A stretch of 64,000 nucleotides of DNA from Saccharofermentanales bacterium (GCA_050951925.1 JBMNJZ010000001.1:1427015-1491014), one strand, 5' to 3'; numbered from the stretch's first letter, positions 40,082 to 64,000 are shown. Made by a program: numbers and translations. Notes: generated by a model from the letters alone, not told the origin.

Positions 40082-40107
40082 CGCACATAACAAATCAAAA
40101 CAAATAA

Positions 40108-41715
40108 CTAAACACTGAAATCTGGTGTGTTCTCTCTGCAGTAGGAAACCCAGTTGCCGTTTTCGATTAATTCTTCTCGACCGAGCTGGCGGAACAACTC
40201 CATACGGCTCTGTGGGGCGAGATCGTACCGCAGGGCAGCCGACGCAAAGAGATGTTTCATTTTTTCATGGTCAATGCTCTTTCGAGCCAAGGACTGCTTG
40301 CCGTAGTATCCCGAAACAAAAACCGTCACCGCGGAAAGACTTCCCCATAGAATCTTAATCCAAACTCGCAAAGTAAAACCGGAAAGAACAATCACCATGG
40401 CGTTCCGGAAGAAATACTCCAAAACCAAGGCTAACAGCCAGAGTACTATGGTGCAAGTCAACATGGCGCGGGTAGCGAGTTCCTGGGTACGGTGCTTTCC
40501 GGCATCCCTGCGCTCAGCTCTTTCGTGGTAGGCTCTTTGGCCGTCAATCCAGGCCTTTTTTACCACATCGGCCGGCACGGCTTCCTTTTCCGGAGCGCCG
40601 ATTAAAAGCGCATAGACCGCGCTTTTTACCCACGTGGCATCGTGCTTCTGTGTCCAGGTAAAGTCATCGCAAACACATTCCCTGCTGCCAAGCGCATAAA
40701 GATATAGCTGAACCCGCAAGGCCTCCGCCAGAGCTCTATACTGTAGGTATTTATCGTGCTGCCGCCGGCGCGCAATCTGTTGGTAGAAAAGAGCATATAG
40801 GACTATGGCACCGCCATATCCGATTAGACATATATTGAGCTCGGCCTCATCGTAGAGCAGGTAAAACATCACCAGCATTACGCTGAATGCGGCAAGCACG
40901 CCCATAATCTTTAAGTAGTGTTTCTGCCACTTCATCGAGAGCTGATCCGCCGCATCATATACCTTTTGAAGCCTGTTGCTTACAGCATGATGAATATATT
41001 CCGGAGCTAAGAGCGGTTCGACGTCCTGAAAGCTTTCCTTTCGCACATCTCGGTTAAAGCGATCTGTTTGTGCCAACACTTCCTTCAGGCTCCCCGCTTC
41101 ATTTTCCAGCAAGTTCACCGTAACGGGGAATTCCTGAGTTTTCGATACTCTGGGTGTAGCGATGTGGATTACCGCGCCCTCATTAGAGGGGCGGAACATT
41201 TTGCCGTTCTGATAATCGCCTTTCAACATAAAGTCCACAGCCTCTGCCGTTCCGCATCCATGCTCCGAACCAGGCTCTCCGTTCCACAGCGCAAGCAGTA
41301 CATGGCTGTGAGCAGCCACGTAAATACCTGTCTGGCGATAAAGATTGTCTCGTTCTTCTCCTTCCGGCCCGCTATAAGGAACCACGAACACATCCGCGGC
41401 CTTGTTTCGCAGGGCTTGATACTCTTCCGACTCTTCGGCACTAAAGTCCTTGCGGTACTCCTCTTCGGGCATGGGAAGCGGGCAATAGAGCGGAATTTGC
41501 AGAGAAAACGCCACGCGGGCACAGAGTTGATCTGCCCCCGCCGCCAGTGAATTCAGCATCCAAACAGGAGAATTGGGATGCTTCCGTTGAATCTTTTGTA
41601 ATTCTCCTGAAACGGCATTTTCCAGTGCGGGGATATCCTCCTTACGGATATCCCTGTGGCCGGTAACACCCACCACGATGGGTATTGTGTTCTTGTTTGC
41701 CTGTGTGTCGCTCAT
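40108..41715 (-). CDS. SLOG-domain (YpsA/DprA/LOG-like) protein with a C-terminal four-TM module (SLATT/LSDAT/DUF4231-like)
   Basis: N-terminus has IVVGVTGHRD, LAAGADQL, PLYCPLP and GCGTAEAV, which match the Rossmann-like SLOG pattern of YpsA/LOG. The C-terminal half has two pairs of TM helices, each preceded by an amphipathic helix (KWQKHYLKIMGVL.., WIDGQRAYHERAERR..). Start at MSDTQ, 20 nt after the upstream stop. Confidence 0.6.
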   Translation of the reverse strand: MSDTQANKNTIPIVVGVTGHRDIRKEDIPALENAVSGELQKIQRKHPNSPVWMLNSLAAGADQLCARVAFSLQIPLYCPLPMPEEEYRKDFSAEESEEYQALRNKAADVFVVPYSGPEGEERDNLYRQTGIYVAAHSHVLLALWNGEPGSEHGCGTAEAVDFMLKGDYQNGKMFRPSNEGAVIHIATPRVSKTQEFPVTVNLLENEAGSLKEVLAQTDRFNRDVRKESFQDVEPLLAPEYIHHAVSNRLQKVYDAADQLSMKWQKHYLKIMGVLAAFSVMLVMFYLLYDEAELNICLIGYGGAIVLYALFYQQIARRRQHDKYLQYRALAEALRVQLYLYALGSRECVCDDFTWTQKHDATWVKSAVYALLIGAPEKEAVPADVVKKAWIDGQRAYHERAERRDAGKHRTQELATRAMLTCTIVLWLLALVLEYFFRNAMVIVLSGFTLRVWIKILWGSLSAVTVFVSGYYGKQSLARKSIDHEKMKHLFASAALRYDLAPQSRMELFRQLGREELIENGNWVSYCRENTPDFSV

Positions 41716-41735
41716 TCTTAACGGTCTCTTTTTTA

Positions 41736-43718
41736 TTACATTCTGTAAACAGTCAAGCCGTCGTACCAACGAATGAGCTCCAACATCTTTTCCATGGGCA
41801 CGGCATCCTTGGTTTTTTCCGCTTCTGGCAATTGTTCAAAGGGAACCATATCGTGATGCATGCGGGTACATTCTCGCATGATATTGTCGTTCTTGCCGTT
41901 CGGCAGCTTTCCGACATGGCCGGTACCGAATTGCCAGCCCATATCACTCTTCTCGTCGCACCAGCGCCGGTGCTCCGCTCCGGCGATAACTTCCATATCC
42001 GCAGGAGTAAAATGAGCAACAGTTTCATAGTCTACGGCACGATCAGTATAAAAGCAGTTGATCTTTTCCAGCACGGCGGCAAATCCCTTGGCCTGCGCGA
42101 TATTAGAAAGCTTATACTCAAGAGAAAGATCCTCTTCAAAAGCCCGCACCATATCTTCGGGTGTTCCGGCGCCGCAGTAGCTAGCGTGGAGAGACAGAGC
42201 GAAACGATAGAAGTTCAGATAATTGCTGTCGGAGAGATACAGCCCCGTACGTTTTGCTTTCTCTACCGAAGAAACGGCGATAGTACCGCTGTAATCCGGC
42301 TTTTTTACATCGCTTTCAAACTTGGGGATGATATCACGAAGAGCCACTATCTCGTCGATATCATCTAAAAACTTACTGCGATGCTCTCGCACGGCACCGG
42401 ACTTTTTGATATAGCCGCCGCTGAGCATATTCTGATAGTCTTTACTGTCGAGGGTTCTGTCCTTGTAGGCCTTGTCGTAAAAAAAAGTCCACGTTACGCT
42501 ATCCTCCGACGGGAATACCATGTCGAAATCAAAGGCGTAAATATCGCTGCGGGTATTTTGGCCGTAAGAAGCACGATCCCAGCACTGCAGTTCGTCACAA
42601 AGTATCAAAAGGTAGGCCAGTGGTTGACCGTCCTTAAGACGCAAAGGCTCGTCGGTATAAAGAAAGCTCCGCATGGTGAACTGAAAAAGGCTGTTATGCA
42701 GAATTATGGCGCAAAAACTATCAAGCACGGCTTTCGGGATTTGCTCCAAGCTTTCGATTTCCCGATGACGATTTAGATAAGTCTTCGCCAACACCAGACC
42801 GCTGAAATAAGCATGGTCCATGTAGAGATAGTCCTTCTCCGCCGGGTTCTCGTGAACCGCACGATCTTTAAGAGCTTTTTCCAACTTGTGGCGGCAAAGA
42901 TAGGGCTCGGCCTCCGTGCGGGATAGATAACTTTCGGCCAAGCGTTCAGTAATGGCGTGAGCGTAAAAATCGTTCAAGTCTCCTAAACGAGACATGCTGA
43001 ATTCGTCCATGCGCTTATACGACACATAGGGAGCGAAACCTCTGTCATCGTTGTTATTTTTATCTAACTTACACACATAGGCTTTCATCTGCTGATGAGC
43101 GATTTCAAAGGGATAGCCTATGTCGTGGAAGAGACTGGTCATTCCCCAAAACTCCAGGAAGTGACAGGCCGCTTCCCGCCCTTCCTCAAGGCAGAAGCGA
43201 GCATTATAGGCTTCTCGAAAAAGCCGGTGGTTTTTGTAGATGGAAAGACCTATGCAAAATACATATACACTGTGAGAATAATGGTCACGGTGCCTCATCA
43301 GAAGAGAGCTTGCATTATACTCGTGTTCCGAGAGCATCTCCAACAGAATTCCGGTAGCATCATAACCGGCTCCGAAGGGCTCAAAAATTTCGCAGTAACA
43401 GTAGTAGATGTCAAAAGCGTCTTCCCGTGAACCACTGTCCAAAAAACGACCGATGGCCTGCTCAAAGCTGAGGCGGTCCAAATCGCGTTCCATGTTGAAG
43501 GGAATCCGGCTACGACCGCTGCTACGGCCGTCTAAGTCGTTCAGTTCATGGCGGGAAGGATCAAACTTTAAGTCTTCGCAGCAATCCCGCAGGAAAGACA
43601 GGGAATCCTGCCCGTAACTGCTGCGGCACTGAGGCAGCGGCGGAATAAGCACGGTATCGAAAAGACCGTACTGATCCCGATTTTTCTTTTGCATCTTTTC
43701 CAGGGCACGATAAGCCAT
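41736..43718 (-). CDS. HD-domain phosphohydrolase with a C-terminal RyR (ryanodine-receptor repeat, PF02026-like) domain
   Basis: HD ligand pattern: RHRDHYSHSVYV ... LFHDIGYPFE ... IILHN ... LCDELQCWDR. The C-terminus AEHRRWCDEKSDMGWQFG...HHDMVPFEQLPEAEKTKD matches the RyR-domain consensus (He.W...GW.yG...hp.lvpyeeLpe.ek.kD). Start at MAYRALE (SD AGGAGA), 11 nt after the upstream stop. Confidence 0.65.
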   Translation of the reverse strand: MAYRALEKMQKKNRDQYGLFDTVLIPPLPQCRSSYGQDSLSFLRDCCEDLKFDPSRHELNDLDGRSSGRSRIPFNMERDLDRLSFEQAIGRFLDSGSREDAFDIYYCYCEIFEPFGAGYDATGILLEMLSEHEYNASSLLMRHRDHYSHSVYVFCIGLSIYKNHRLFREAYNARFCLEEGREAACHFLEFWGMTSLFHDIGYPFEIAHQQMKAYVCKLDKNNNDDRGFAPYVSYKRMDEFSMSRLGDLNDFYAHAITERLAESYLSRTEAEPYLCRHKLEKALKDRAVHENPAEKDYLYMDHAYFSGLVLAKTYLNRHREIESLEQIPKAVLDSFCAIILHNSLFQFTMRSFLYTDEPLRLKDGQPLAYLLILCDELQCWDRASYGQNTRSDIYAFDFDMVFPSEDSVTWTFFYDKAYKDRTLDSKDYQNMLSGGYIKKSGAVREHRSKFLDDIDEIVALRDIIPKFESDVKKPDYSGTIAVSSVEKAKRTGLYLSDSNYLNFYRFALSLHASYCGAGTPEDMVRAFEEDLSLEYKLSNIAQAKGFAAVLEKINCFYTDRAVDYETVAHFTPADMEVIAGAEHRRWCDEKSDMGWQFGTGHVGKLPNGKNDNIMRECTRMHHDMVPFEQLPEAEKTKDAVPMEKMLELIRWYDGLTVYRM

Positions 43719-43729
43719 GTTTTCTCCTA

Positions 43730-44710
43730 TCAGTTCATAACTTCTACTGTAAACGGAGCATTCTCCGGAATCTCCACCGGGAAAATATTTGCCATTATGC
43801 ATACAGTCTCCAGCTCTGCGCAATAAAGCAAAGGTTCCAGAGTTTCCAATTCCCCGCCGGCTATGCTAATTTTGCGAAGTTGAGGGAAATACTGCATGTA
43901 TTTAAGCAGCTCCTCGTTGCAATTATTAAGCCAAATCTCATCATTTGAACAGGTTGTCAAATTCTCGTAGGTCAGAGGTGTCTCCTGGCCCCAATCGTAA
44001 AAGCCAATGGCATCATATAGCATCTCCCGGGTCTTTTCCGACTCAAAGACTATCTCTTCCGTCAGCTTTTGATTGGTCTGCTCAAAGATACCGTGGGTAA
44101 TGACATTGGATCCCATCTGTACCACTTCTTTCGGCTCCGGCTGCTCTGCAAGCGCCACCGGCGCAAGGCCGGGGAGCATATCGTTGAACCAACCGTTATT
44201 CAGGCCGTAGACACCTGTGCCAAGTGCGATTATGAGGCAGACCGCAACGGCGATGATAGCTGTCCAGAAGTTACCCTTCTTTGCGGTACCGACACCTCGT
44301 TCATAGCCGGTGACTCCATCGCCTATGAGGACATCGTCCAGCAAGGCTCGAAGCTCTGCGTATTCCTTAACGGTCTCACATCCGGAAAGCTTGGGATGGA
44401 CTTTATCCCCCAGGGTAAACTGATATACTGGGCGAGTATCCGCTCCGGCGTGCACCACTTCGTTTTCGCAGTTGGGAGAGATTAAGGATTCTTCCGACAC
44501 AAACACCAATACCGCGGAGGCGGCGCGGAGGTGATCTTCTATGTTCTTCGGCCATTCACTGCCCGGGGCTATGCCTTCGTCATACCAGAGCCTATATTTC
44601 TCGGAAAAAAGGGCTTCGATTATGGGCATCACCTTTTCGGAATTCCGGTGGGCATAGCTTACGAAGATATATGGCTCGCGGCCTTCATAAGCGGGAATAC
44701 GTTCACTCAT
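43730..44710 (-). CDS. TIR domain - single TM - extracytoplasmic domain with short LRR-like C-terminus
   Basis: N-terminus matches the TIR_2 pattern: PYIFVSYAHRNSEK...RLWYDEGIAPGSEW...AVLVFVSEESLISPNCENEVVHA. TM is FWTAIIAVAVCLIIALGTGVYGL with Lys on the N-side. The C-terminus has L..L..I.I-type repeats. Start at MSERIP (SD AAAGGAGGG). Confidence 0.7.
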   Translation of the reverse strand: MSERIPAYEGREPYIFVSYAHRNSEKVMPIIEALFSEKYRLWYDEGIAPGSEWPKNIEDHLRAASAVLVFVSEESLISPNCENEVVHAGADTRPVYQFTLGDKVHPKLSGCETVKEYAELRALLDDVLIGDGVTGYERGVGTAKKGNFWTAIIAVAVCLIIALGTGVYGLNNGWFNDMLPGLAPVALAEQPEPKEVVQMGSNVITHGIFEQTNQKLTEEIVFESEKTREMLYDAIGFYDWGQETPLTYENLTTCSNDEIWLNNCNEELLKYMQYFPQLRKISIAGGELETLEPLLYCAELETVCIMANIFPVEIPENAPFTVEVMN

Positions 44711-44726
44711 TTTATTCTGCCCTCCT

Positions 44727-45593
44727 TTAGTGTTCCACAACGACAGTGATTCCGGCATTGCATAGATCGCGGGCGAAGATCACTTGGTCTTGGCTGATTT
44801 TTACGATTTCAATACCCTTAACCTGCGCAAGCGGCCACAGGGCTACATTTGAGGGAATATCCGAAACATTTACCGTGGTAGCGGATACTTCTTTGATGTT
44901 TAGGAGTGTGGTAAAAGTTCCGCCCGAGAGGTCGAGTTCACCCACAGCTTTTCCCGCCATGGCGGCAATGCCCTCGTCGCTGTATTTGGCTATATTCACA
45001 TATTTGCTTCCATTCGTGTTCTGCAGAATGTATGCTGCCGACGTGCGCTCACGTATCATCGAGCCAACATACAGGGCAAAGACCAGTACGACTACTGCCA
45101 CCATAGCAGCTATGATGTAATTTCGCTTGCGGTTGAATTTGCGTTTTTCCATGCCTTCGCCTACCATGGCCTGAGTCAGCACCCCGCTTTTAGTTAAGGC
45201 TTCCGCCGTTTCCTCAGGGCTGCCAAGGGCAATCACCGGAATGTTGGCAAGCTGCATGTCCAGGCCGTAGCCGAGCTGAAATTCTCCAAATTTTACACAG
45301 ACAAGGGGCTTTCGCAGGCTCAACAGGTAGTTGATGGCATTGCGGAAGGCGAGGCTTTCTATGCTCTTTTCCGACAGGAACACCACCGCTCCGCTGCAGT
45401 GAGTTATGGTCTCCGCCAGTGCCGCGGGGCTTTGAGCGAACTTGCCGCCGCAACTATCGCAGCTCAGCCTAAAACCGCGGCTCACAAGAATATCCGCAAC
45501 AGCCGCCGCCGCAGGCTCATCGGCCGGACTACAACCTATATAGGCAAAATCGCCTATACCTGCATAGGGAAGATAGCTAAAGTGCTTTTTCAT
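44727..45593 (-). CDS. Degenerate TIR-like domain - single TM - small extracytoplasmic LRR-like domain
   Basis: Same architecture and spacing as its neighbours (DFAYIGCSPADE...AVVFLSEKSIESLAFRNAINYL). TM is YIIAAMVAVVVLVFALYVGSMI, preceded by KRKFNRKRN. Start at MKKHFS (SD AAGGAGAG). Confidence 0.5.
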   Translation of the reverse strand: MKKHFSYLPYAGIGDFAYIGCSPADEPAAAAVADILVSRGFRLSCDSCGGKFAQSPAALAETITHCSGAVVFLSEKSIESLAFRNAINYLLSLRKPLVCVKFGEFQLGYGLDMQLANIPVIALGSPEETAEALTKSGVLTQAMVGEGMEKRKFNRKRNYIIAAMVAVVVLVFALYVGSMIRERTSAAYILQNTNGSKYVNIAKYSDEGIAAMAGKAVGELDLSGGTFTTLLNIKEVSATTVNVSDIPSNVALWPLAQVKGIEIVKISQDQVIFARDLCNAGITVVVEH

Positions 45594-45604
45594 ATTATCT
45601 CTCC

Positions 45605-47203
45605 TTAGTTGTAGTAGTAGTTGTCGCAATACTCGATGACAAAATGTGCGTCTTGCAACTGTTCATCAGCCAGCTCTCTCATATCTGATGAGATAATCAG
45701 GCGTCGCAGAGACTGAAGTTGCTGAACAGGAGTCAGGTCGCTTAGATTCTGACAGAAATGTATGTCCAGAATATCTATACCCTCAAAGAGCTCCAAGCCA
45801 TCCAAAGAGGATACTGTACTCCAGCCTAAACTTAGTACACCACCGAGATTGATAACAATACCGCTCAATTCCCGCAAAGAGTCTATTTGCAGGCCTTGCC
45901 ATGAAAACTCACGGATGGGTTTTCCTTCTATATATGGCAATACGGCCTGCAATTCATCCTGATCAACAAAAAGCTTATCAAAACTCTCTATATCGCCAAG
46001 CGAAGAATACTCATCTATCTGCGTCTCCCTGATATCAAGATGGATGTATGGAAGAGTATTAAGAGCGGGAAGCTTGCTAACCGGGGCAGCGTTTATAATA
46101 AGGCAGTTCAGCTTATTTGCCGTACTCAGCGCTGAAATGTCCCTCACATTGGTAGCACCTATGTTCAGGTGCTCAAGCTTTGATAGCCTTTCGACACCCG
46201 AAATGTCGGAGACGTAAGTCGCATCCAACATAACGAACACAAGATTTTGGCAGTCCCACAGCGGCGAGGGATCGGTAATATCTGTGGCGGTAAGGAAGAT
46301 GGCTTCCAGATTGCTGAGTGCCCCTATTCCCTCTATAGAAGAAATGGGGTTGGCGCTCAGGTCGAGATAGCTAAGTTTTTTCAAGCAAAACAAGGGTGAA
46401 ATATCGGTAATTTGGTTGCCGCAGATGCAAAGGTATTCCAAATTGGGCATATACGAGAAGATTTCAAGATCTTCGGAAGTCAGGCTGCCCACCGGGACAG
46501 GTCCTTGAACTTCCATATTGTCGTTTACGCTCATACCAAATTGAACAGCACTACGATCGCTGAACTCATACCAGCCGTGAACAAGACTGCCGTATGCCCG
46601 GTCTCCCACAATATAGAGTTCCGTAATGCTCTCTAAATCTTCTCTGGTCAAGCCCCAGCGCTGTGCCGCATTCTCGAGCGCCTTGGCGGGAGCAATAAGC
46701 AGAGGATTCACAACAGCAAAGAACAAAATTACTGCAGCTACAATTGGCGCCGTCACCATTGTGATGGCACGATTGCGCTGATATTTCTTCTGGGCCTTGG
46801 TTACGGCCATATCTCGGAAAATGAAAGCTTCTTTCAGCTTGGAGACAAAAGCCTCGTCCATGTTGTCCGCGAACAGCGCCTGCTGGCTGCCGAGCTGCAT
46901 GGTGCTCCAAGGCGTAGAGGGGATATCTTCCAAATATACACTGAGTATTTTCTGTCCGCGGGCAACAGCCGTATCCACTATGGAGCGAAAGCGTTCGCTT
47001 GCGGAGAACTCCGCCGTAACGAATAGCAGCACGCCGAAGGCCCGTTGCAAGCGCCCTTTTTCGCGGCGGTCGAAGCGGTCCGCGTACCAGAATTGTGCGC
47101 CATCTACGGCCAAAGTTTCCAGCACCGGAAGAATCTGTTCCTCTTGTTCCCGCGGGAATGCAACATAGATATAGGGTCTGTCATTTTTGCAGTAGCGTTC
47201 CAT
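45605..47203 (-). CDS. TIR-like domain - single TM - leucine-rich-repeat (internalin-type, 22-aa period) ectodomain
   Basis: N-terminus: PYIYVAFPREQEE...QFWYADRF...VLLFVTAEFSASERF. TM at aa 146-171, preceded by KAQKKYQRNR. From aa ~252 there are at least 7 consecutive 22-residue repeats of L..L..L.L....I.DISPL type. SD is AGGAGGGAATC. Confidence 0.7.
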   Translation of the reverse strand: MERYCKNDRPYIYVAFPREQEEQILPVLETLAVDGAQFWYADRFDRREKGRLQRAFGVLLFVTAEFSASERFRSIVDTAVARGQKILSVYLEDIPSTPWSTMQLGSQQALFADNMDEAFVSKLKEAFIFRDMAVTKAQKKYQRNRAITMVTAPIVAAVILFFAVVNPLLIAPAKALENAAQRWGLTREDLESITELYIVGDRAYGSLVHGWYEFSDRSAVQFGMSVNDNMEVQGPVPVGSLTSEDLEIFSYMPNLEYLCICGNQITDISPLFCLKKLSYLDLSANPISSIEGIGALSNLEAIFLTATDITDPSPLWDCQNLVFVMLDATYVSDISGVERLSKLEHLNIGATNVRDISALSTANKLNCLIINAAPVSKLPALNTLPYIHLDIRETQIDEYSSLGDIESFDKLFVDQDELQAVLPYIEGKPIREFSWQGLQIDSLRELSGIVINLGGVLSLGWSTVSSLDGLELFEGIDILDIHFCQNLSDLTPVQQLQSLRRLIISSDMRELADEQLQDAHFVIEYCDNYYYN

Positions 47204-47247
47204 GATTCCCTCCTGAGTTGTTGCGATATATGATTACAAAATTGGCA

Positions 47248-47282
47248 GTATGATATTATCATACATGCTTTCTGTCTTACAA
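47248..47282 (-). promoter_or_regulatory. Predicted promoter of the island operon with an overlapping perfect palindrome (operator candidate)
   Basis: Minus strand: TTGTAA (47282-47277), 18 nt, TG-n-TAATAT (47258-47253). The 17-nt palindrome GTATGATA-N-TATCATAC (47248-47264) covers the -10. Confidence 0.45.
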
Positions 47283-47550
47283 TTTACTACTTCCCGGCCG
47301 GTTTGTCTTAAGAAAAAAGCGGCGAGCCGAACGATTGCACATAAAAAGCTCATATACCAGTTTTATCCCATGAACCCAAATTGAATAAGATTCGCATTGG
47401 ATGAGAGAATATGAAAGACGTAGATAACCTAAATGAGATATGAGCATCTTGTCATACAGAATAAAAAGTGTTCTTATTTAGATGAACTACAACATGAAGC
47501 AAACACTTGCAAAATGATCACTCTGGCCAAGAAAGAAACGAGGTAATAAA

Positions 47551-48129
47551 ATGAAAAAGTTAAGCTGTTTGATTGCTCTGTTGCTTGCCTTCTTCATGCT
47601 CCTGCCTTTTACAGGCTGCAAGCAAAATTCGCCTGCAGGATCAGATAACAAGGTATCCGGTTCACCTGCCGCAAACGATTCTTCCATCGTATCCGAACCG
47701 AAGGATAGTTCTGAGCCGGCGCTTCCGGCGGAACCGTCCTTTGTCAAGCACAATTCCATTCAATCCGCACTTCCGTCACCTGGAGATGCCACAGTAACAA
47801 TGACCGGCGACGAGACTATTGATCTGACCGGCATCCCGCTTGCGGGGCGCAAGGAAATCATTTTGGACGGCCACATACTGACATTGACTGGAGCTTACGG
47901 TATTTCAGCGGATGCAGTTTTGGATATCAAGCCGGGCAATGGCACAAACGGAGGTACGCTTAACATGGCGGGTATGACATTTGACTTCGGCTTCCTTGAC
48001 GGAGAGCTTCCTCCCGAAAAGGCACTCGTGGAGATACGCCCCGGCGTAACGATAGTCGAACCGGAATACCCGGAAGGTGTCAGCATAAGGGAGTTCCCGG
48101 GCGTATTGACAGTCATTCAATGTGATTAA
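47551..48129 (+). CDS. Predicted secreted lipoprotein of unknown function
   Basis: Signal peptide with lipobox LPFTGC, Ser/Pro-rich linker, small Gly/Thr-rich C-terminal domain. Divergent from the TIR operon. Confidence 0.6.
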   Translation: MKKLSCLIALLLAFFMLLPFTGCKQNSPAGSDNKVSGSPAANDSSIVSEPKDSSEPALPAEPSFVKHNSIQSALPSPGDATVTMTGDETIDLTGIPLAGRKEIILDGHILTLTGAYGISADAVLDIKPGNGTNGGTLNMAGMTFDFGFLDGELPPEKALVEIRPGVTIVEPEYPEGVSIREFPGVLTVIQCD

Positions 48130-48315: not shown

Positions 48316-50844
48316 TTGAAAGGAAGAATCACCTTGGCTGCTAAAGATACATTGCTTGTCAGCAAAATCTCGGTTCGCCAACTGGTTGCCGGCGCAAGAA
48401 AAACCGGCAGCCTGACCAACCCCAGCTATAGCTCCGCCCGGGCCGCGGATGGTATTAAAGCACATAAGAAATTTGTCAATTTGATGGCGGAACAAATTGA
48501 TAATCCTGATCTGTTCAGCGAATTTTCTTTAGAAACATCTTTTACCACAGAAATTTGCGGTTTGCAGTATCGATTGGAGATCTCAGGTCGTTGCGACCTC
48601 TGGTACCCGGACCGGGATGGTCCATGCCTAATTGAGATCAAAAGTTATCGCGGACAAGAGCGTGCTGAGAATGAGTCCGGGAATTCATTGCACTGGGCTC
48701 AGGCGGAAACTTATGCTTATATGCTCCTGCAAAAAGTTCCTGCCCTGCAAAACTGCAGAAAGATACGTGTCTGTTTAGCTTATGTTGCAGTAGATAGCAA
48801 TGATTATTATTTAATCGAACGAGCATTCGATTCGCCCGCTCTGAAGAAAAAATTCACAGATCTCTGTACCGGCTGGCTGCAAAATACTGTCAGCCTGATA
48901 GATTACCGGAAGACTAGAAATCTTGTGAATGCTGCTGGGGGCTTCCCCTATGACAATCTGCGTGAAGGCCAACGCTTTTTTATGCGGCAGGCAATTGCGG
49001 CTATGCGCGATCGCAGCACTTTATTTGCCCAAGCTGCTACAGGCAGTGGCAAAACAATGGCGGTAGTTTATCCTGCGTTAAAAGCGCAGGCAGCCGGACT
49101 CGGTTCAGTCATCTTCTATCTGACAAATATGTCGTCAACGAAATTGATAGCAGAACAGGCTATTGCCGATTTAAGACAGAATGGCTTTCTGGTACGCAGT
49201 CTCACTTTGACTGCCAAAGAAAAAATTTGTCTGCAACCAGATCTCTACTGCGAAATGAAGATTTGCCCTTATGCTCAGGACTATTATGAAAGATTGCCCT
49301 CCGCTCTCCTGGAGCTGGCATCCATAAAAATGGCGGATCACGATACGATTATAGAGATTGCGCAGAAGCATAGACTGTGTCCTTTTGAGTTGCAGCTGGA
49401 CTTTTCTGAATGGTGCGACATTGTGATCGGCGACTACAATTATCTTTTTGATCCTCGCGTTTATCTGAGCAGATTTTTTGCCGACGACAATAAGGATGCG
49501 CATATTATCCTGATCGATGAAGCCCATAATTTGCCGGCAAGGTCACGACAGATGTACAGCTCCTTCCTGGAGCTTTCCGCTTTACGCCGAGTTGAGCAAC
49601 TGCTGTCGGCACCTGACATCGCCGATCTGGGACCCACTAAACATGCTTTGAACCGCCTTCGTCAAATAATTGGCTGTTTAGATGGGCTTCTGCCTTATTT
49701 GCGCGACCTTGGATTGCAGTTCGCGGATCAAAATTTATTGGGTACGAAAATTAACCAACAGGAACTGCTGCGCACGGAACGGTTCATTGGAGCCAGAAAA
49801 CCTTTGGCGAATTTTATCAGCAATATAGGTTCTTTAGTCTATGCTTTAGGGCAGTTTCTGGATTGCTTCCCGGAATGGGAGTCGCGGCGTACCGTGCTGG
49901 AACTTTGGTTTGAGCTGAATTTTTTCCTGCGCGTAGCTGAATCCTACTATGACAAAAACTATATCACTATGATCCGTCAAACTGCACCAGACGATCTGAC
50001 GATCGGCTTGCTATGTCTGGATGCGGCCAAAAGTCTTACAAACAGATATTATCGACGCTATCCGATAATCTTTTTCTCTGCGACTTTGAGTCCTGCCTCT
50101 TACTACCAGAGGTTGCTATATTCTTATATGACAGAAAATCCACCGGATTTTCTTCAGCTCGCTTCGCCCTTCGCGTCGCGAAACAGATTTGTGCTTACAG
50201 TTGATCATTATTCTGTTCGCTATCAAGATAGAGCAAATACTCTTTTCCCTATTTTGCGTTTAATTTACCAAGCGGTTCAAATCAGACCAGGACATTATCT
50301 CGTATTTTGCCCGTCATTTGTTTATTTGCGGCAAGTAGCTCAGGCACTGAAACAAATTAACATCTCAGAGGAATGGCAAATTATGATCCAGAAACCTAAA
50401 CTCAGCGAGCAAGAAAAAAACAAATGGTTGGATCGCTTCCGCAACACAGGCGGTAAACCACTATTAGCTTTTGCCTGTCTCGGCAGTATTTTTAGCGAAG
50501 GGATTGATCTAATCGGAGAGCAATTAATTGGCGTGTTTGTTATTGGCACCGGTCTGCCCCGTCCCTCACCGGAACGTGAGCTGATGCGCCAATATTACGA
50601 GCAGGAATTCGGCAGTGGTTTTCACTTTGCCTATACTTTCCCCGGTTTTAATCGGGTTATGCAGGCTGCCGGCCGGCTAATCCGCCATGAGGACGACCGG
50701 GGAATAATCATTCTGATTGATGATCGCTATTCACGTGAAGATTATCGGGAAATTATCCCGACTGACTGGTTGGCGCAATCTGTTCATGATGATGAGGAAA
50801 CATTAGCCTTGATCACAGAATTCTGGGACTGTCAATTGACCTAA
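48316..50844 (+). CDS. DinG/XPD-family (Rad3-like) SF2 helicase with an N-terminal PD-(D/E)xK RecB/Cas4-like nuclease domain
   Basis: N-terminus has GRCD...IEIKS plus QAETYAY (the D/ExK and QxxxY motifs). Then Walker A AATGSGKT, four Cys (CLQPDLYCEMKICP...LCPFE, FeS-type), DEAHNL box and C-terminal helicase motifs (QAAGRLIR). Start is uncertain: TTG at 48316 or TTG at 48334. Confidence 0.75.
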   Translation: MKGRITLAAKDTLLVSKISVRQLVAGARKTGSLTNPSYSSARAADGIKAHKKFVNLMAEQIDNPDLFSEFSLETSFTTEICGLQYRLEISGRCDLWYPDRDGPCLIEIKSYRGQERAENESGNSLHWAQAETYAYMLLQKVPALQNCRKIRVCLAYVAVDSNDYYLIERAFDSPALKKKFTDLCTGWLQNTVSLIDYRKTRNLVNAAGGFPYDNLREGQRFFMRQAIAAMRDRSTLFAQAATGSGKTMAVVYPALKAQAAGLGSVIFYLTNMSSTKLIAEQAIADLRQNGFLVRSLTLTAKEKICLQPDLYCEMKICPYAQDYYERLPSALLELASIKMADHDTIIEIAQKHRLCPFELQLDFSEWCDIVIGDYNYLFDPRVYLSRFFADDNKDAHIILIDEAHNLPARSRQMYSSFLELSALRRVEQLLSAPDIADLGPTKHALNRLRQIIGCLDGLLPYLRDLGLQFADQNLLGTKINQQELLRTERFIGARKPLANFISNIGSLVYALGQFLDCFPEWESRRTVLELWFELNFFLRVAESYYDKNYITMIRQTAPDDLTIGLLCLDAAKSLTNRYYRRYPIIFFSATLSPASYYQRLLYSYMTENPPDFLQLASPFASRNRFVLTVDHYSVRYQDRANTLFPILRLIYQAVQIRPGHYLVFCPSFVYLRQVAQALKQINISEEWQIMIQKPKLSEQEKNKWLDRFRNTGGKPLLAFACLGSIFSEGIDLIGEQLIGVFVIGTGLPRPSPERELMRQYYEQEFGSGFHFAYTFPGFNRVMQAAGRLIRHEDDRGIIILIDDRYSREDYREIIPTDWLAQSVHDDEETLALITEFWDCQLT

Positions 50845-62235: not shown

Positions 62236-63771
62236 CTACTTGGCGTAATCTGCTACCCTGCTTTCACGTATCATATTAATTTTGATCTGACCCGGGAAAT
62301 TAAGCTCCGCTTCGATCTGTTTGGCGATACGATGGGCAATCAAAGGCATCTCATCATCTTTAACCTGATCCGGCAGGACAATAACTCGTATTTCACGCCC
62401 GGCCTGGACAGCATAAGACTTTTCGACACCGGTCATTGAATTAGCAATTTCTTCTAATTTCTCAATGCGCTTGATATAAGTTTCTACATTCTCTCTACGT
62501 GCACCCGGTCTGGCAGCCGATATGGCATCCGCCGCCGCAACCAAAGAAGCAATCATTGTCGTAGGTTCTTCATCTCCATGATGAGATGCGATAGCATTTG
62601 TTGTCACTTCATCCAATTTAAGCCTTTTCGCAATATCAACTCCCAATTGGATATGTGAACCCTCCATTTCAAAGTCAACGGCTTTACCTATGTCATGCAG
62701 CAAACCTGCCCTCTTGGCAGACATTACATCAAGACCCAGTTCTGAAGCCATAATTCCGGCAATTCCGCTTACTTCTACAGAATGCTGCAGGACGTTCTGA
62801 CCATAACTGGTGCGATACTTTAAGCGACCAAGTATTTTAACAGCTTCAGGATGGATACCGACGACACCGGATTTAAAGACAGCCTCCTCACCAGCCTCCT
62901 TAATAGATTGGTCGATTTCCTTCTTAGCTTTCTCAACCGTTTCTTCAATCCTGGCAGGATGGATACGTCCATCCTGAACCAGCTTTTCTATGGCAATTCT
63001 GGCTATCTCACGTCGTATCGGATCAAAGCTGGATAAAATCACTGCTTCCGGAGTATCGTCAATAATCAAATCAACTCCGGTCATCGTTTCGATAGTTCTG
63101 ATATTTCGACCTTCTCTGCCGATGATCCTGCCTTTCATTTCTTCATTGGGCAAGGCAACAACCGACACCGTTGCATCTGAGACAAAATCTGAAGCATATC
63201 TTTGGATGGCATTTACTACAATCTCTTTAGCCATCACATTGGCGTTTTCCCTGGTTTCTTCCTCAATTTGACGAAACAGGATTGCCATATCATGTTCATA
63301 CTCCACTCTGGCTTCATCAAGAACCTGTTTCTGAGCTTCTTGTACAGATAATCCGGATATGCGTTCCAGTTCTTCGACTTTACGTTGTTCAGTCTCCTGT
63401 AGCCGCTTTTCCGCTTCCAGCAAATCACATTGCCTTTGCTCAATATCCTGCTCTTTTTGTTCAAGAGCGGAAATCTTACGATCCAGAGCTTCTTCTTTCT
63501 GATCAATCCGGTTTCTCTCTCGCGACAACTCGCTTCTTTTGTCGCGAGCATCTCTCTCCAATTCCGCTTTTGCTTTGTGTACTTCTTCTTTGGCTTCCAG
63601 TAGAAACTCACGTTTCTTGTTCTCGCCTTCTTTGCGTGCCTCTAAGATCAATGCTTTTATGTCCTCAGCAGTTTTTAATTTCTGCTCTTGTAACGCAATA
63701 CTCTGTTTACTCAGACCACGTCTGTACCAGGTAATTGTAACAATTGCTATCAGTACAGAGCCTGTAATCAA
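62236..63771 (-). CDS. rny: Ribonuclease Y
   Basis: N-terminal TM, long coiled coil, KH domain ([12 protein letters not shown]), HD domain (LLHDIGKA). Confidence 0.93.
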
Positions 63772-64000
63772 GCCAATAACTAAATATAGCCACTCTATGT
63801 CTAATCACCTCCATAATTAATTTTTCAAGTTGCGAGTTAAAACATAAGCAACGCCTCGCTGAGGCGCTGTGAATACTATTCAATATTTTATAGATAAAAG
63901 TGCATATCTGTCAATTTATTCAATAAGTATGTCCTAAACTTTAGTCGTCAAATTATTTTGTAGGCTTTTATATATAATGTATTATGTTTAATAGCACTCT

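Follow-up and report, generated by a model that had tools for sequence, protein, structure and literature searches.

What does a ryanodine receptor (RyR) domain do in a bacterial operon of TIR genes? The question is raised by a gene on the minus strand of a 64,000-nucleotide stretch of DNA from Saccharofermentanales bacterium (GCA_050951925.1 JBMNJZ010000001.1:1427015-1491014), to which we refer as the window. Its product, here called the core-RyR protein, joins a conserved, enzyme-like core rich in histidine and aspartate to a C-terminal RyR/Repeat12 (R12) domain. An initial annotation, made from the sequence of the window, described the protein as an HD phosphohydrolase with a RyR domain and stated that the function of prokaryotic RyR domains was essentially unknown. 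That was so for bacterial RyR domains until mid-2026; the statement has since been outdated by two preprints tying phage copies, RyDEP (PMC13232231) and RyR Tad (10.64898/2026.06.04.730250), to the cyclic ADP-ribose (cADPR) signals of Thoeris.

In our analysis, a RyR domain with the ligand residues of the phage copies turns out to be host-encoded, fused to a conserved enzyme-like core and linked to TIR genes. Read from sequence, the domain that phages use to capture cADPR is probably also the bacterium's own receiver. We tentatively propose that the core-RyR protein is a Thoeris-like effector, in which the RyR domain would bind an ADP-ribose (ADPR)-type signal made by a TIR protein and switch on a hydrolase.

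A RyR/Repeat12 domain with conserved putative ligand residues

The core-RyR gene is one minus-strand open reading frame (ORF; 41736..43823). Its start is most plausibly the ATG at 43718, which lies 7 nucleotides downstream of an AGGAG and would give a protein of 660 amino acids, the length shared with the closest full-length homologues (60-90% identity). As the initial annotation noted, the first part of the protein carries no recognisable motif: it has no Pfam match, and residues 1-74 are specific to the clade. The linker between core and RyR region (residues 396-495) also has no family match, and its conservation is confined to the protein's own family.

At the family level the RyR/Repeat12 assignment is secure. 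Among the homologues, 30 of 33 close ones and 48 of 80 distant ones matched the Pfam family PF02026 (best E-value 3.8e-19), and a superfamily profile retrieved solved RyR repeats from the PDB sequences at an E-value of 6.5e-32. The window protein itself stayed just below the curated cut-off of 27.4 bits, with 23.0 bits for the full sequence (residues 575-650, E-value 9.9e-5) and 26.6 bits for the C-terminal fragment alone, so the RyR label of the initial annotation stands for the family and is marginal for the single protein. When the full AlphaFold2 model (pLDDT 87, pTM 0.91) was compared with the PDB using Foldseek, all confident matches were RyR Repeat12 domains, headed by crystal structures of RyR3, RyR1 and RyR2 (probability 0.9-1.0, target-normalised TM-score 0.4-0.55, E-values just 0.02-0.5). 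The full model also matched phage RyR proteins in BFVD. The PDB matches extend over about 200 aligned columns, which is the size of the two-repeat R12 unit. Because comparison of residues 470-566 with 567-660 detected no sequence repeat, the idea of a two-repeat R12 unit in cis comes from the Foldseek coverage of a predicted model only; by sequence, the clear repeat is the second half alone (residues 570-655).

The residues expected to contact a ligand are conserved. RyR Tad (gp68 of Pectobacterium phage CB1), for which a structure with 3'cADPR is available and which also binds 2'cADPR and canonical cADPR, was shown by mutagenesis to hold 3'cADPR through H129/W132, K147/H154 and K170/D171 (10.64898/2026.06.04.730250). 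In our alignment with gp68, these residues pair with H583/W586, R615/H621 and K637/D638 of the window protein. Among 106 family members, H583, W586, R615, H621, K637 and D638 are kept in 104, 106, 106, 103, 105 and 99, respectively, a retention of 94-100% for the six putative ligand residues. BLAST pairs H154 with H622; from family conservation and the spacing of the VPF motif, we infer that its counterpart is H621. The C-terminal domain is therefore real, but its description as matching the RyR consensus almost residue for residue was overstated, since RyR Tad and the window protein share 21% identity and differ by a 14-residue insertion.

RyDEP, a mycobacteriophage PF02026 protein, hydrolyses the ribose-ribose bond of 2'cADPR as well as 3'cADPR through a catalytic dyad, H75/D117, in which the histidine activates water and the aspartate protonates the leaving group, and other phage RyDEP homologues act as nanomolar sponges (PMC13232231). 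The counterparts of the dyad are present in the core-RyR protein as H583 and D638, as mapped by analogy through RyR Tad; both residues are kept in the non-catalytic sponge homologues too.

The RyR domain is not restricted to a few close relatives of the window protein. By word-indexed search there are 2,079 relatives, none of which has a name. When residues 1-396 were used as a profile in an exhaustive search, 1,330 cluster representatives were retrieved at E-values up to 1e-3, 412 of them at up to 1e-10 (representatives clustered at 50% identity). Most members of the core superfamily carry the C-terminal RyR domain. Some have the architecture core-RyR-SLOG (756-824 amino acids), and others reach about 920 amino acids with no recognised extra domain. 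Three proteins of the core-RyR-SLOG kind, P0152, P0166 and P0168 (the last at L088:1555-3861), end in a SLOG-like region with weak DNA_processg_A or YAcAr matches; such polypeptides appear to carry two putative nucleotide-binding modules on one enzyme-like core. Proteins with the core and RyR domains together with TIR genes were found in Clostridia, Coriobacteriia, Erysipelotrichaceae, Anaerolineae (Anaerolineaceae), Smithella and Gastranaerophilales metagenome-assembled genomes (MAGs).

In the same operons, RyR domains occur on at least three unrelated N-terminal regions: the core, a 454-residue protein family and a 661-residue protein family. The EHxxW...H...KD set is intact on the RyR domains of various operon proteins, clearly so in the 454-residue family. 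This use across unrelated N-termini fits the pattern of a sensor module, by analogy with CARF, SAVED and SLOG. It should be noted that a family of 640-675 residues (L075:13241-15226, L046:936-2855) has a C-terminal RyR domain (PF02026, 8.6e-8) behind an unrecognised N-terminus, and that one locus (L059:12940-13305) encodes a stand-alone RyR protein of 121 residues, the size of a phage sponge within a host operon.

TIR genes are the constant partner of core-RyR genes

We surveyed the context of core-RyR genes in 78 non-redundant loci from these groups and counted neighbours in the 45 whose two flanks each span 3 kb or more, scoring TIR genes within 7 kb by a locally iterated TIR profile. The linkage is tight and widespread: a TIR gene was present in at least 35 of the 45 loci (78%). 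SLOG-type genes were present in 12, a PDDEXK_4 nuclease in 14 and further RyR proteins in 13. Because Pfam found additional TIR or TIR-like proteins that the local profile had missed, namely a TIR-WD40 protein (L029), a DUF4062-STAND-WD40 protein (L009) and an 823-residue TIR protein (L063), the figure of 78% may be an underestimate. The constant genomic partner is TIR and not SLOG. Of the TIR/SLOG pair in the initial annotation, the emphasis belongs on TIR. In six of the 45 loci TIR is the sole recognisable partner on the same strand, which leaves the core-RyR protein as the only effector candidate there.

Genes in these operons are spaced by 10-20 nucleotides. The TIR and core-RyR genes stay while the accessory genes vary, being either SLOG/SLATT or a PDDEXK_4 nuclease with a 454-residue RyR protein. 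Two operon types dominate. The type seen in the window runs from genes for TIR proteins with a transmembrane (TM) helix and leucine-rich repeats (TIR-TM-LRR) through core-RyR to SLOG/SLATT. The distant type runs from core-RyR through a TIR-repeat gene and a PDDEXK_4 nuclease to a 454-residue protein with a C-terminal RyR domain; it sometimes adds the 661-residue RyR paralogue, DUF2779 or the 121-residue stand-alone RyR protein. The distant type recurs as four genes in a distant clade, at L064:8974-15665 and in similar form at L044, L047, L049, L053, L055, L060, L061, L065 and L084; its TIR-repeat proteins carry Flg_new or LRR_5 repeats, its nuclease has 405 residues and the N-terminus of its 454-residue protein is unrecognised.

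A very distant member, P0233 (L090:2054-11197; 572 residues, RyR 1.9e-17), is found in a different TIR context. Upstream are genes for a 1,064-residue TIR-STAND(NPHP3_N/AAA_16)-TPR protein, a methyltransferase and a 589-residue unrecognised protein; downstream are an adjoining Metallophos/5'-nucleotidase gene and then a gene for an HSP70-VWA protein.

The initial annotation had kept in view that the orthologues might turn out to be housekeeping genes. The presence of TIR within 7 kb in at least 35 of 45 well-flanked loci speaks otherwise, and we rejected a housekeeping role on the grounds of the mobile cassette described below, the varying neighbours and the steady TIR linkage. Only one record of the phage collection holds a full-length core-RyR homologue (32% identity): MT836912.1, an 8.3-kb contig labelled 'UNVERIFIED: Bacteriophage sp.', in which the core-RyR gene is followed by a TIR gene (L091, 2066-6506). 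The contig is a bacterial fragment assigned to the wrong source, or else the system has a copy carried by a phage. As this is a single unverified contig, and again TIR-paired, a phage origin or anti-defence role was rejected as the principal explanation.

An invariant His/Asp-rich core

The core contains four His/Asp motifs (nucleotides ~42573-43295): RHRDHYSHS at residues 142-150, LFHDIGYPFE at 196-205, IILHN at 338-342 and LCDELQCWDR at 373-382. The initial annotation took these motifs for a full HD ligand set; they are where it placed them and their key residues are invariant, but the HD label was not statistically established. Across 106 members, down to about 35% identity, the invariant residues are E133, R144, D145, H146, H149, S150, H198, D199, G201, P203-F204-E205, D301-H302, S306, H341-N342, D375-E376, Q378 and R382. 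Most of these also hold in 17 maximally diverse core sequences. In more than 200 homologues the motifs do not vary, and they are not a product of chance. The conserved core begins at about residue 75, and many superfamily members start their match at query positions ~73-90.

In the AlphaFold2 model, the motif H...HD...D, of the metal-ligand type, lies in order on helices. Helix 146-163 has H149 in its first turn, helix 181-196 is followed by H198-D199, and D301-H302, H341 and D375 are at or inside helices. The spacing is H..H-(48)-HD-(102)-DH-(39)-HN-(33)-D, and the arrangement H-x-x-H...HD...D(H) is one that we take to recall class-I phosphodiesterases. The strong constraint on about 16 His, Asp, Glu and Arg positions fits a catalytic output domain, and the core probably is a metal-dependent hydrolase under strong purifying selection. 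A hidden Markov model of the core, run against ~4,800 translated segments of the related loci, found no relatives outside the family.

Several weak signals point to the HD superfamily. PF01966 matched 16 of 80 distant homologues below its cut-off of 22 bits (best E-value 1.2e-3; 15-17 bits where scores were shown) and was the sole enzyme family to recur among their weak matches. These matches always span the segment from the first histidine to the HD motif (model positions 2-40, once to 87).

We used hhalign to compare the core with a background of 776 proteins, in which 774 unrelated proteins of local origin were joined by Dgt and YfbR from E. coli. Dgt aligned over 64 columns (P 0.0036-0.018), with H149 on H69 and H198-D199 on H117-D118, and was the only HD protein whose match ran in register to the first histidine; its rank of 2nd-3rd, at P 0.004-0.005, is the level expected by chance for the best of 776. 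RNase Y from the window (P 0.0025) and, from related loci, an HD protein (0.013) and an HD_5 protein (0.016) aligned over 11-19 columns around the HD motif, and the three HD proteins within the background ranked 2nd, 7th and 10th. YfbR gave nothing. The hhalign signal is suggestive and appears to be largely the short motif itself. The RNase Y used here as a genuine HD control from the same genome is encoded at 62239-63804 on the minus strand (RNase_Y_N, KH, HD 3.5e-17).

On balance, we consider the core probably, though by no means certainly, to be a very divergent HD-superfamily domain. Weak all-alpha Foldseek matches to IDO1, terpene synthases and transporters were rejected as noise (TM-score <0.2, best E-value 1.2).

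Proposed role of the core-RyR protein

We propose that the core-RyR protein is the cytosolic component of a Thoeris-like TIR signalling cassette. The neighbouring TIR protein would make an ADP-ribose-derived nucleotide, probably a cADPR isomer, and the C-terminal RyR/Repeat12 domain would be its receiver. Ligand binding would activate the N-terminal HD-like, metal-dependent hydrolase, which would damage or starve the cell or the phage and would likely target nucleotides or nucleic acid. In the window, the protein would act alongside a second receiver-effector, the SLOG-like/SLATT membrane protein encoded downstream.

The steady TIR pairing fits a receiver of the TIR product whose output is enzymatic, as do the variable accessory effectors, the presence of RyR on several unrelated N-termini, a RyR pocket and a His/Asp site that are each strictly conserved, and a putative catalytic Glu in at least one cassette TIR. 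The initial annotation had offered a ligand-binding module as one reading of the RyR domain, and it is best read as such, for the TIR product. What the analysis shows is the architecture, the conserved putative catalytic and ligand residues and the close, widespread TIR linkage. We infer that the TIR product is a ligand of the host RyR domain, that it switches the hydrolase on instead of serving as its substrate, and that the core is an HD-type phosphohydrolase.

A number of results weigh against this proposal. Pfam confirmation of the HD family, which the initial annotation had called for, failed: PF01966 had no match at an E-value up to 10 in the window protein or in its four fragments, the distant homologues stayed sub-threshold as described above, and none of 33 close homologues had an HD match. 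NCBIfam likewise gave no HD match for the core, and neither Pfam nor NCBIfam has a model of it. The window protein by itself and the close-family and superfamily profiles found only RyR among the PDB sequences, and a core-only profile found nothing at an E-value up to 10. Foldseek returned no HD structure for the full model, against the PDB or BFVD, or for a separate model of residues 1-396 (pLDDT 74) against the PDB, and in none of these comparisons did the core match another fold significantly. Because the HD assignment fails by Pfam, PDB profiles and Foldseek, the output chemistry of the core is uncertain. PADLOC had no match for the core-RyR protein; one cassette TIR gave weak ThsB/TIR-related matches (E-values 6e-4 to 2e-3), and the SLATT protein had a match at chance level. 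Many loci, the window included, encode a dedicated effector (SLOG/SLATT or a PD-(D/E)XK nuclease), which leaves room for a regulatory role of the core-RyR protein. By analogy with RyDEP, the RyR domain itself could be catalytic, as the dyad (the His of EHxxW and the Asp of KD) is conserved. Human RyR3 R12 binds ATP and ADP (PDB 6uhh, 9l9b), which means that something other than a TIR product could be the ligand. Ligand binding, enzyme activity and an anti-phage role are all putative for the core-RyR protein.

The strongest alternative, which we regard as possible but rather unlikely, is that the protein processes the signal: the RyR domain would hold the TIR-made cADPR isomer as a substrate, and the protein would either clear it or mature it for a SLOG-type effector. 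Clearing would act as a reset or threshold, by RyDEP-type cleavage to ADPR, by HD-type pyrophosphate cleavage or by both. Maturing could, for instance, mean that the pyrophosphate of 2'cADPR is cleaved to leave a pRib-AMP-like product. Signalling nucleotides are known substrates of HD enzymes, HD-GYP, PgpH and SpoT among them. Furthermore, the SLOG-type proteins (in the window and in 12 of 45 loci) or PDDEXK_4 nucleases (14 of 45) could be the true effectors, triple core-RyR-SLOG fusions occur, and a Metallophos/5'-nucleotidase gene adjoins that of P0233. By alignment logic, H75/D117 of RyDEP corresponds to the conserved H583/D638 (PMC13232231). However, the sponge-type homologues of phages retain this His and this Asp and yet do not cleave, so that conservation of the dyad predicts nothing, and the HD chemistry is itself putative. 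In addition, a degrader in the six loci with TIR alone would have no effector to restrain, which makes little sense unless TIR is itself an NAD-depleting effector. The context tends to favour an effector or receiver over a signal destroyer.

It is improbable, in our estimation, that what the RyR domain detects is not a dedicated TIR signal but common adenine nucleotides (ATP, ADP or ADPR, reporting a collapse of NAD or energy) and that the protein is a hydrolase gated by metabolic state which only accompanies TIR NADases. Among solved structures, the nearest are of RyR3 Repeat12 domains in crystals with ATP, ADP or AMP-PCP (PMC12627627), many bacterial TIRs are NAD-depleting effectors and not signal makers (Yirmiya et al.), and the TIR partners carry sensor-like repeats of their own (LRR, WD40, TPR, STAND). 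Set against this, phage R12 proteins have nanomolar affinity for cADPR isomers and hold them through exactly the residues kept here, and SLOG-type receivers in the same operon argue for a dedicated signal.

Equally improbable is a non-HD core of a new all-alpha fold, in which the His/Asp residues bind metal or ligand in a structural or scaffolding role (for instance, in docking to a TIR assembly) and the RyR domain, as the sole working nucleotide site, is a host sponge or buffer: Foldseek finds nothing similar to residues 1-396 (best E-value 1.2, TM-score <0.2), PDB sequence matches are absent at an E-value up to 10 and the core-RyR gene is translationally coupled to TIR genes, but the spacing of motifs at helix ends and their absolute invariance are typical of a catalytic metal centre, PF01966 is the sole enzyme family recurring in weak matches (16 of 80), and the four genuine HD proteins compared all align at the HD motif (ranks 2nd, 7th and 10th, and RNase Y at P 0.0025).

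If RyR is the receiver, as we propose, it would be a new sensor domain beside SLOG, Macro, SAVED and CARF in nucleotide-based immunity, and the source of the phage RyR sponges would become clear. There would also be a new effector or signal-processing chemistry to characterise, and a simple bacterial system for R12-cADPR recognition, which is still debated for animal ryanodine receptors. A wider reading, which we consider doubtful, is that RyR/Repeat12 is a native bacterial receiver from which phage RyDEP and RyR Tad and the animal R12 descend, so that the link between cADPR and ryanodine receptors was inherited from prokaryotic immunity. On this wider reading, the signals in the window would be issued by membrane proteins shaped like Toll-like receptors, the TIR-TM-LRR proteins, and the HD-like domain may additionally convert the bound cyclic signal for the SLOG-type effector, for instance by opening the pyrophosphate to give a pRib-AMP-like molecule.

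Relation to known systems

The core-RyR protein resembles phage RyDEP (DyoEdafos gp78) and RyR Tad (CB1 gp68) in its PF02026 domain, in its ligand-contacting residues and in the arena of TIR-derived cADPR. The phage proteins are small (gp68 has 183 residues) and act against the host as homodimers. In contrast, the core-RyR protein is host-encoded, has 660 residues, is fused to a 320-residue His/Asp core and sits inside a TIR operon. Its R12 unit is probably monomeric, as judged from the model, in which about 200 residues align and the first half is without a sequence repeat. Animal RyR Repeat12 is the best structural and profile match, with a nucleotide/drug site that uses the same residues. 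In animals, R12 consists of two clear repeats in tandem within a channel of 5,000 residues; the core-RyR protein, soluble and enzyme-like, ends in a single clear repeat with a degenerate partner.

The likeness to Thoeris lies in one or more TIR genes beside a protein that joins a nucleotide-binding and an output domain. Examples are the ThsB TIR with the type I SIR2-SLOG protein, the type VII SLATT effector ThsH and the predicted '4TM SLOG' class. Unlike in Thoeris, the TIRs of the cassette are membrane-anchored with LRR ectodomains, or are fused to WD40, TPR or STAND in related loci, and core-RyR cassettes hold three to five genes rather than two. The Thoeris-like logic is known; what would be new are the receiver domain of this TIR signalling system and its output domain, which has no name. 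The searchable text and tables of the Thoeris survey (Yirmiya et al.), two of the tables in truncated form, contain no RyR, HD(-like) or LRR component, an absence that is not proof. Our search of the literature for host RyR-TIR, RyR-SLOG or RyR-SMODS links found only the two phage preprints and this survey.

With the HD dNTP triphosphohydrolases (Dgt, SAMHD1-like proteins and anti-phage dGTPases), the core shares the order and spacing RxxHSxxV...(L/F)HDIGxP and a His/Asp set compatible with a binuclear site. Unlike these enzymes, it lacks HD_assoc and has large insertions, with 176 residues from the HD motif to the last Asp; membership is putative. Type III CRISPR ring nucleases, host enzymes that remove the messenger of their own system, offer an analogy for the signal-processing alternative only. 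They have no sequence or fold relationship to the core-RyR protein, and signal degradation here would be comparable by analogy alone.

The five-gene cassette and its surroundings

The core-RyR gene is the fourth of five overlapping or closely packed genes (Table 1). The stop codon of the TIR gene at 43730-44758 is 11 nucleotides ahead of the core-RyR ATG, and the ATG of the SLOG/SLATT gene is 20 nucleotides past the core-RyR stop.

Table 1. Features of the core-RyR gene and its cassette, in window coordinates.
Feature	Position	Strand	Basis
Core-RyR protein, coding sequence	41736..43718	-	ORF, start codon with ribosome-binding site, homologues of equal length
Clade-specific N-terminal extension, residues 1-74	43497..43718	-	No Pfam match
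Conserved all-alpha His/Asp-rich core, residues 75-395	42534..43496	-	Invariant residues; HD-like, probable metal-dependent hydrolase
Beta-rich linker, residues 396-495	42234..42533	-	AlphaFold2 strands 397-401, 409-415, 435-437, 443-445, 480-485
C-terminal RyR/Repeat12-like region, residues 496-660	41739..42233	-	PF02026, profiles, Foldseek, putative ligand residues
Canonical RyR repeat, residues 570-655	41754-42011	-	
SLOG-like N-terminus and four hydrophobic helices with SLATT domain	40108..41715	-	Downstream gene
TIR-TM-C-terminal domain protein	43730..44758	-	TIR_2 E 5.3e-15; TM helix
Second TIR-TM protein	44727..45629, likely start 45593	-	TIR_2 E 1.6e-4 to 4.7e-4 (below cut-off); TM helix
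TIR-like-TM-LRR protein, first gene of the operon	45605..47203	-	LRR_4 5.9e-17, LRR_8 7.9e-12
Mobile five-gene cassette, whole extent	40083..47377	.	Identity to L001 block; GC content

The block at 40083-47377 is 83-85% identical in nucleotide sequence to a Bacillota MAG (L001) exactly over its own extent, with unrelated flanks, and its GC content of ~0.50 compares with 0.41-0.46 in most adjacent 2-kb bins. Because the block is shared, its flanks are unrelated and its GC content is above most of its surroundings, it is, on this sequence evidence, a mobile cassette. In the L001 copy (L001:4741-13633), the LRR gene is duplicated, the genes between which it is inserted are different and an AbiEii/HTH pair lies alongside the cassette. 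The mobile cassette and the AbiEii neighbour in L001 are hints of a defence setting, both of them indirect.

All three cassette TIR proteins have a layout like that of Toll-like receptors: they begin with the TIR or TIR-like domain, a single hydrophobic helix comes at about residues 145-190, and then follows an LRR or other C-terminus, which would lie outside the membrane. In the product of 45605-47203, the N-terminal 130 residues match the local TIR profile and the TM helix is at about residue 145. As bacterial proteins with the topology of Toll-like receptors, the TIR-TM-LRR receptors are of interest in themselves. A TM helix follows the TIR domain in 23 of 65 partner TIRs of related loci, mainly in the close, window-like clade.

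At the column that we take to be catalytic, chosen by the TIR motif alone, Glu is found in 54 of 74 partner TIRs. Within the cassette, this column holds Glu in the product of 43730-44758, Ala in that of 44727-45629 and Ile in that of 45605-47203. Of the three, the first alone keeps the putative catalytic Glu, and the second is probably non-catalytic.

The 40108-41715 product is a probable membrane effector. It matches NCBIfam SLATT_3 (E-value 3.8e-6) and Pfam DUF4231 (1.1e-3), and its N-terminal 'IPIVVGVTGHRD' domain has a weak YpsA-SLOG match (E-value 0.12 over 129 positions of the model). The protein fits the '4TM SLOG' class of putative Thoeris effectors (Yirmiya et al., Table S1) and also resembles the type VII SLATT effectors of that survey.

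The cassette is flanked on one side by housekeeping genes, for a Mur ligase, a CCA/poly(A) polymerase-family protein and PNPase, and on the other by a DinG-type helicase gene. A plus-strand ORF at 47551-48129 encodes a lipoprotein-like protein of 192 residues without a family match, whose signal peptide ends in ...FTGC. The helicase gene adjoining the cassette (48316-50844, plus strand) encodes an 842-residue DinG/XPD-type protein (DEAD_2, Helicase_C_2) with an N-terminal PD-(D/E)XK nuclease match.

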